A stretch of DNA of 31,187 nucleotides, from positions 1 to 31,187 of the forward strand of contig CAJWCD010000023.1 in NCBI GenBank assembly GCA_913020725.1, given 5' to 3'. Source of the DNA: an uncultured Pseudomonadota bacterium. Its GTDB lineage: Bacteria > SAR324 > NAC60-12. How positions within the stretch are numbered: position 1 is the first letter of the stretch; every line of letters starts with the position of its first letter. The notes under the pieces are model-generated. The model saw only the letters and a list, made by a program, of their open reading frames with translations, searched no databases and had not been told where the DNA came from. Positions 3,840-5,929 of the stretch are shown piece by piece. The position numbers were made by a program, and so were the translations under genes.

Positions 3840-5096
3840 ATGAAAACAATTACAGTCAACGGCCGCAGCTACGCTTGGCCGCAGGCGCCCACGGTGGTGG
3901 TCTGCATTGACGGCTCAGAGCCGGATTACATTGAAATAGCGGTTGCTGGCGGCGCGATGCCCTTCATGGCGCGGATGCTTGACAATGGCGCCAACCTACG
4001 CGCCCAATGCGTGGTACCGAGCTTCACCAATCCCAACAATCTTTCCATCGTCACCGGACGGCCTCCACTGGTTCACGGCATTTCCGGAAACTACTTTCTC
4101 AACCCGGAGACGGGTGAGGAGGTGATGATGAACGATCCCGCTTTGCTGCGTGCGCCCACGCTGTTTCCCGCGTTTCAGGAAGCCGGAGCGAGCATTGTCA
4201 TCGTCACGGCGAAAGACAAACTGCGGCGCTTGCTTGGACACGGGCTGCGCTTTGGGCAAGGCGGGGCCATCTGCTTTTCCTCGGAAAAAGCGGAGCAAGC
4301 GACGCTTGTCGAAAATGGGATCGAGGGCGTGACGGCGCTGGTCGGCATGGATGTGCCGAGCGTCTATTCGGCGGAACTCTCCGAATTCGTATTCGCAGTG
4401 GGCTGCAAGCTGATGGAGTCGCGGCGACCGGACCTGATGTACCTCTCCACCACGGACTACGTTCAGCACAAGCACGCCCCCGGTAGCGCAGGAGCCAATG
4501 CCTTCTACGCGATGATGGATGGTTATCTCGCCCAGCTTGACGAAAAGGGAGCCGTGCTTTGCCTCACCGCCGATCATGGCATGAACGCCAAACACAACGC
4601 CTCCGGAACACCGGATGTGATTTTTCTGCAAGATGTGCTGGACGACTGGCTCGGAGAAGGAGCCACCCGCGTGATTCTGCCGATCACTGATCCGTATGTC
4701 GTGCATCACGGAGCACTCGGCTCTTTTGCTACCGCCTACCTTCCGGACTCCACCGATGCACAGGAAATCGCAGATCGGCTCTCCGGGCTCGAGGGCATTG
4801 AATACGCGGCTCCGAAAGCCGCCGCTTGCGCCCGCTTTGAACTTCCGGAAGATCGCATGGGCGACCTTGTGGTGGTTTCAACCGTCCACAAGGTGATTGG
4901 CACCCGACCGGAATTGCACGACCTTTCCGGACTCGAAGTGCCGTTGCGTTCCCACGGCGGAGTTTCCGAGCAAACCGTGCCGCTGCTGTGCAATCGTCCG
5001 GTGGACACTGCAGGCCGCAGCCTCAGAAATTTTGACGCCTTTGACCTCGCGCTCAATGCAGCGCAACCTTCAACTCTTGTCCAACCTGATCCATGA
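3840..5096 (+). CDS. phnA: Phosphonoacetate hydrolase (alkaline phosphatase superfamily)
   Basis: [26 protein letters not shown] (nucleophile Thr), [39 protein letters not shown]. Starts 6 nt after phnW. Confidence 0.95.
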
Positions 5097-5929
5097 GCAG
5101 CTACGAAAACTATCACAAGACCAGCCGCGTTTACGACAAAACTCGCTCGGCAGGCGGTGTTGAAACGATACTTCAGGCGTTAGTCGCAGGGCCGCTCCCG
5201 TTGCAGCAGCAGGTGCTGGTTGATGCGGGCTGCGGCACTGGACTCTACACCGCTGCCCTGATCGGCGAGGTGCAGCGCATCGAGGCAGTTGACCTCAACG
5301 CCGGAATGCTAGAAATGGCGCAGTCCAAGTTGACAACAGAGTTTGAGGAGGGTCGCATCCGTTTCCATCAGAGTGCAATCGGTACATTGCCGTTGCCTGA
5401 TGACAGTATGGATGCCGTGATGACGAATCAGGTGCTGCACCACCTGCCGGACGATGCCGCTGCCAATTGGCCCGGACACACCGAGGTGTTTCGTGAGTTC
5501 GCACGGGTGTTGAAACCCGGTGGCTGCGTCATCATCAACAGTTGCGGGCACGAACAACTGGAGCAGGGTTTCTGGTTTTATCGCCTGATTCCGGATGCTC
5601 TGCAAGCTGTGAAGGAAAAGGCCGTTGACCTCGGCACGTTGGATGCCCTGCTTCAGGAGAGTGGTTTTGACGCTCTGCACCGCGAGGTGCCGCTGGACCT
5701 GGTGTTGCAGGGCGACGCCTACTTGCTCGCCGATGGCATCCTAGATCCGGACTGGCGGCGTGGGGATTCCATCTGGAGTCTGGTTGCAGCGGATGCCCTC
5801 GCTGACGTGCTCGCAAAGGTGACGGCCCTGCGGGATGCCGGGAAACTCGAAGCCTTCATGCAGTATCACGACCAGCCGCGCACCACGACTGGCCAAGTGA
5901 CTTTCACGATTGCCCGCAAGCCTAGCTGA
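5093..5929 (+). CDS. Class I SAM-dependent methyltransferase
   Basis: Motif [38 protein letters not shown] overlap with the phnA stop. Confidence 0.92.

Follow-up and report, generated by a model that had tools for sequence, protein, structure and literature searches.

2-Aminoethylphosphonate (AEP) is the commonest natural phosphonate. Among marine compounds with a carbon-phosphorus bond, AEP and its N-methylated derivatives are regarded as the most abundant (PMC3266647); N-monomethyl-AEP is described as frequent in nature, as are enzymes which degrade N-methyl-AEP (PMC10590968). AEP itself is reported to be made by a three-enzyme pathway of PepM, Ppd and a transaminase (PMC8942020), and in the biosynthesis of dehydrofosmidomycin by Streptomyces lavendulae DfmB and/or DfmC are described as methylating it to trimethyl-AEP (PMC12006828; PMC9296572), whilst FzmB is given as a phosphonate O-methyltransferase of biosynthesis (PMC4303578). 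DfmB/DfmC were the only AEP N-methyltransferases to surface in the literature searched, and the word "methyltransferase" is absent from the main text of PMC10590968, PMC10574752, PMC8316502, PMC12366243 and PMC9381506. Here we consider a 31,187-nt stretch of DNA, contig CAJWCD010000023.1 of an uncultured SAR324 bacterium (the window), in which a gene for a class I S-adenosylmethionine (SAM) methyltransferase, P0001, lies directly behind the AEP degradation genes phnW and phnA. A sequence-only reading of the window had taken this gene for a possible undescribed step in phosphonate metabolism. A role for the family in AEP metabolism is backed by its fusion to an AEP transaminase and by its adjacency to a putative AEP transporter, but these point to biosynthesis or diversion of AEP rather than to degradation by the PhnWX or PhnWAY pathways.

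The reading which we favour, and to which we give about an even chance, is that the P0001 family would be an AEP N-methyltransferase, transferring the methyl group of SAM to the amine of AEP and thereby diverting AEP instead of degrading it. A broader version, held somewhat more tentatively, is that of a widespread marine family in which a fused form in Verrucomicrobia, Planctomycetes and Rhodothermales would, with PepM and Ppd alone, make N-methylated AEP, whilst a free form in SAR324 and Gammaproteobacteria would methylate AEP which has been scavenged.

The fused form is represented by P0161, which joins a PhnW/AepZ transaminase (TIGR02326, 470.6 bits against a cut-off of 400.8) to a methyltransferase domain of the family. 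When the methyltransferase part of P0161 was used as a query, a PhnW part was found in 62 of the 65 longer proteins (protein clusters) matched. Those fusions with organism names come from Opitutaceae and Verrucomicrobiales (Verrucomicrobia), Planctomycetes and Rhodothermales; all fusions fall in one clade of the tree, and their methyltransferase domains are 35-41% identical to P0001. The gene context was readable at a single fusion locus, that of genome G344:

L246:10502-14997 (G344:C74), three-gene AEP biosynthesis operon: transaminase-methyltransferase fusion, cytidylyltransferase-PepM (374 bits against a cut-off of 319.6) and Ppd (497.6 against 312.5)

As the fusion stands with PepM and Ppd, and no further tailoring gene was recognised in this run, the product of the operon is taken to be AEP and the fused domain to be the only added chemistry. 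A spermidine-synthase/MFS-like gene lies divergently upstream. The same company of PepM, Ppd and an aminotransferase surrounds DfmB/DfmC, and SAM methylation of AEP, as proposed here, would be common to both; the two differ in that DfmB and DfmC are separate proteins of an antibiotic pathway whereas this family is marine and either fused to a transaminase or placed beside catabolic and transport genes, a comparison made by description and not by sequence, no DfmB/DfmC sequence or structure having been among the matches of the PDB sequence and structure searches.

For the wider family, a neighbour analysis was carried out on the window and 104 other loci, excluding a locus of the same species (L095), a duplicate (L015), a member of 25% identity (L028) and three found later (L374-L376, with no AEP gene within their 3.8 kb); some of the 104 are near-identical strains, and one from an unpublished genome (L020, G092) was counted as being without AEP genes. 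An AEP gene was found within 5 kb at 12 of the 104 loci, namely phnS2/T2/U2 transporter genes at nine, phnX at L341, phnA at L096 and pepM-ppd at L246, and at 10 of the 58 loci flanked by 3 kb or more on each side; the L341 phnX and, at six of the nine transporter loci, the transporter genes were confirmed above cut-off. Among 127 control loci of unrelated class I methyltransferases, which come from other taxa, no AEP gene was near. From the names of its profile models the phnS2/T2/U2 transporter would be of the AepXVW type, the binding protein of which is described as specific for AEP (PMC8316502). Transporter-linked members occupy four separate places in the tree, and at L314, L317 and L321 the transporter lies between the methyltransferase and a phosphatase partner, thus the linkage of methyltransferase and transporter has outlived rearrangement. 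This partner also recurs elsewhere:

L312:6935-7681 and 21 other loci, uncharacterised HAD phosphatase family with an FDKDGTL motif, for which no close solved relative was found; occurs in company with the methyltransferase and with the putative AEP transporter

Within the Arenicellales, phnS2 is present in 28 of the 40 genomes with the family gene and in 42 of the 111 without it, although kin are not independent, and it adjoins the family gene in four of the 28 genomes holding both. For the three AEP links beyond that of the window (fusion, transporter and phnX), a rough chance probability of 0.004-0.08 was obtained when they were treated as independent events at assumed rates.

P0001, 35-41% identical to the fused domains, would share their activity and would turn AEP into its mono- to trimethylated forms. 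In carriers of the fusion the fused domain would methylate freshly made AEP, whilst in the window organism, the genome of which has no pepM above cut-off and where the gene company of DfmB/DfmC, present in G344, is not seen, P0001 would act on imported AEP and PhnW and PhnX would degrade the remainder. The products would serve as a head group or as a solute akin to betaine. A pyridoxal phosphate (PLP) transaminase requires a primary amine and does not accept N-methylated AEP; P0001 would therefore not be a degradation step. Moreover, N-methylated AEP is described as being degraded via separate oxidases (PMC10590968), which would make the proposed activity a diversion and not catabolism.

The genes around P0001 in the window are as follows:

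1526..2518, minus strand, LysR regulator, divergent from phnW (open reading frame limits, the true start may lie downstream; TIGR03339, 333.8 bits against a cut-off of 341.1)

2595..3833, plus strand, phnW, 2-aminoethylphosphonate-pyruvate transaminase (TIGR02326, 477 bits against 400.8; open reading frame from the first GTG, the family match beginning at about residue 42)

3840..5096, plus strand, phnA, phosphonoacetate hydrolase (TIGR02335, 558 bits against 407.6; C-terminus 7 residues longer than that of the L096 PhnA)

5093..5929, plus strand, class I SAM methyltransferase P0001 (278 aa), standing in the phnY position; its family is uncharacterised and mostly marine

5952..6800, minus strand, phnX, phosphonoacetaldehyde hydrolase, convergent with the methyltransferase (TIGR01422, 290.9 bits against 220)

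With phnW and phnX both above cut-off the PhnWX pathway is present, and in NCBIfam profiles the regulator falls just under the cut-off of the AEP-associated LysR model and thus near the AEP-catabolism LysR family; a congener, G001, has a LysR 86% identical at the equivalent position. In comparison with the described PhnWX and PhnWAY clusters and their accessory genes (PbfA-D, PbfF), the window shares lysR, phnW, phnA and phnX, above or near cut-offs, but phnY is missing and the methyltransferase stands in its place. No phnY above cut-off was found in the window's genome, which is 93% complete (best TIGR03250 score 226 against 635.7), so that PhnWAY is not recognised there, and phnY follows phnA in all four annotated phnW-phnA regions, including that of G001 (PhnA 88% identical); on these two grounds the methyltransferase and the convergent phnX occupy the former place of phnY. 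The window's phnX is 82-83% identical to that of genus g12, where it is unlinked to the methyltransferase. The phnA at 3840-5096, kept without a phnY above cut-off in the genome, may act on phosphonoacetate from outside.

The methyltransferase had been described as intact and as enclosed between phnA and phnX. Its reading frame is indeed open, and it adjoins both genes, but phnX is on the minus strand; the gene is thus the last of a plus-strand phnW-phnA-methyltransferase run, probably co-transcribed under LysR, and does not lie inside a phnA-phnX operon. An ATGA at 5093-5096, in which the start of P0001 overlaps the stop of phnA, is also present as claimed, whilst the translational coupling read from it carries no weight. 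In L096, whose methyltransferase is 78% identical to P0001, the phnA stop lies 16 nt before the methyltransferase ATG, and the extra residues of the window's PhnA arose by a small insertion or deletion near the 3' end, hence the overlap is incidental. The gene is single-copy in its genome and looks functional given the 75 synonymous and 63 non-synonymous codon differences from L096, a third-position GC content (0.69) similar to that of its neighbours, and contigs from RNA libraries which cover it in all four runs compared. One such contig (5061-5285) spans the phnA junction, although these contigs are a weak hint and no proof of a single transcript, and the libraries may contain DNA.

The arrangement behind phnA is not widespread. 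In the host phylum the family gene is present in 14 of 88 genomes and phnW in 39 (36 above cut-off); 11 genomes have both, and only in the window's genome are the two on one contig. Of 20 other phnW regions of the phylum, 10 have phnW-phnA and none has the family gene. The enrichment of homologues beside phnW, phnX or phnA which the sequence-only reading led one to look for therefore mostly fails, being seen only in the window's species (L095), in the close relative L096 and, for phnX, at the distant locus L341. In genus g5 (L228:4644-7718), phnW is followed by a gene for a 1025-aa kinase-M23-aminotransferase fusion (PRK06148 above cut-off) in place of phnA.

P0001 belongs to Pfam Methyltransf_11 (77 bits, E 1.4e-21) and has the features of a class I SAM methyltransferase, with motif I (DAGCGTG, 44-50) and D67 conserved across its family. 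The AlphaFold model has a predicted local distance difference test score (pLDDT) of 96.1 and its structural matches are class I methyltransferases. The protein scores below the cut-off of every NCBIfam methyltransferase model (UbiE, BioC, ArsM, CpaM), the best reaching 61.6 against 180, BioC 54.5 against 185 and UbiE 52.1 against 216. Homologues with organism names at 56-65% identity are annotated as SAR324. Of 34 family-conserved positions examined, 32 are identical in P0001 and all eight fused domains, and include Y7, Y14, R18, H116, H117, Q155, W161, R222, D225, R263 and Q268; the conserved tyrosines, histidines and three arginines are candidates, on conservation, for phosphate-binding or catalytic residues. 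An uncharacterised Anabaena methyltransferase (PDB 3EGE), 21-22% identical to P0001, gives no substrate. DhpI (PDB 3OU2), reportedly a phosphonate O-methyltransferase, and FzmB resemble the proposed P0001 in being SAM methyltransferases of small phosphonates, and because these and DfmB/DfmC are known in biosynthesis the chemistry is not new. AEP N-methylation is thus already known; of the P0001 family and its transaminase fusion no description was found in the literature searched, with supplements and most subscription papers outside its scope.

Several observations weigh against AEP as the substrate. No AEP gene is found at 92 of the 104 loci; the placement behind phnA is recent and lineage-specific; and no TmpB/PhnZ-type protein is above cut-off in the window's genome, so that the fate of the product there is unexplained. 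Furthermore, the HAD phosphatase with its DKD motif adjoins the family gene in 22 of the 104 loci, mostly directly downstream, betA and xsc/tpa in four each and agmatinase in 11, whilst a choline-kinase-like gene, trimethylamine-methyltransferase-family genes and a betaine-type binding protein are near it, each in single lineages. Aminoethyl compounds, together with their N-methylated forms, are the theme common to these neighbours. In plants and nematodes a phosphobase route methylates phosphoethanolamine to phosphocholine, and it could be that the free-standing members, P0001 among them, do the same, with a phosphatase freeing choline and choline dehydrogenase converting it to glycine betaine, whilst activity on AEP is confined to the fused clade; we regard this as unlikely. 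The set of methyltransferase, phosphatase and choline dehydrogenase fits such a route: the DKD motif of the HAD neighbour is of the phosphatase type, unlike the DWAG of the window's PhnX, a metallophosphoesterase precedes the family gene in eight loci, a choline ATP-binding cassette transporter is found at L106 and L312, the choline-kinase-like gene follows in L107, and of the four betA neighbours two were above cut-off in one check and one in another, with a betA-like gene (54%) in the window's genome. That genome has no match to the HAD partner at 1e-25, however, and the HAD protein has no close solved relative. Phosphoethanolamine N-methyltransferases of plants, nematodes and Plasmodium (PDB 5WP4, 5WP5, 4KRI, 3UJ7) share the class I fold of P0001, lead its Foldseek matches by E-value and would offer a like chemistry on an isosteric aminoethyl-phosph(on)ate acceptor. 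Their template modelling scores of 0.55-0.62 are nevertheless at the level of other class I methyltransferases, with 14-20% identity and root-mean-square deviations of 6.8-8.6 in Foldseek, and the sequence matches lie mainly in the SAM-binding half. Phosphoethanolamine accounts for the place behind phnW-phnA no better than AEP; the two substrates are nearly isosteric, and both may be accepted by a single enzyme.

Another small-molecule substrate (taurine, or some other amine or acid), or a drift of substrate within the family, is similarly improbable in our view; the place behind phnA would then be a chance product of the rearrangement which removed phnY. At the 35-41% identity which separates P0001 from the fused domains, class I methyltransferases can have different substrates; the placement occurs in a single relative besides the window's species, and the family gene moves often through many unrelated neighbourhoods, the nearest relatives of P0001 in the tree adjoining xsc/tpa, DUF350, metallophosphoesterase, EamA and agmatinase. 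Against it stand the three further links to AEP, namely the transaminase fusion, the transporter linkage which survives rearrangement and a true phnX beside the family gene at L341, as well as the family-wide conservation of residues outside the SAM site. O-methylation of a phosphonate, either on a phosphonate oxygen as by DhpI or on the carboxylate of phosphonoacetate as by FzmB, would explain the place behind phnA, but we think it very unlikely; among the substrates put forward by the sequence-only reading, N-methylation of AEP is favoured over methylation of phosphonoacetate by the fusion within an AEP biosynthesis operon and by the transporter adjacency.

Other features were seen in the family and in the window's genome. 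Further family fusions carry a thymidylate-kinase-like domain or are double-methyltransferase proteins, one from a dinoflagellate (P0157, P0202, P0212). A recurring block of genus g12 (L219:3133-10502) has xsc divergent from DUF350-metallophosphoesterase-EamA-methyltransferase, facing agmatinase; at L221:9439-11388 (G056) the methyltransferase, EamA and phosphoesterase genes all look frameshifted, probably by assembly errors; and at L353:5287-10841 a distant member follows a TauD-like dioxygenase and faces an O-methyltransferase and a PLP decarboxylase, with an NMT1-type binding protein near. The window also contains boxC and boxB of the benzoyl-CoA epoxide pathway (7765-10871, both above cut-off), and an acylating sulfoacetaldehyde dehydrogenase SauS (734.5 bits against 600) followed by an acyl-CoA-ligase-like gene (18950-22017), likely for sulfoacetate degradation. 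Two PhyH-family dioxygenases and a phosphonate-binding-protein-like gene (Pfam E 1.2e-19) lie at 23364-24281, 26534-27313 and 30203-31018, none reaching a named NCBIfam cut-off. Elsewhere in the genome, L378:1447-2571 (G000:C28) encodes a BBOX/TmpA-like dioxygenase, with TmpA as its best solved match and no evident HD-domain partner nearby.

The window itself offers the smaller lesson, that of a recent, lineage-specific placement and not of a new step in phosphonate degradation; it is the fusion operon of the G344 type, and not the phnA junction, which is strongest as an object of study and lends itself best to testing. Were the substrate phosphoethanolamine, the family would give bacteria a phosphobase route leading to choline and betaine, which would also be of interest. 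If instead the marine family does N-methylate AEP, a common class of marine phosphonates would have both its enzyme and its bacterial producers named. The three-gene operon, in which transaminase and methyltransferase are fused, offers a way of testing which organisms methylate AEP in the sea.
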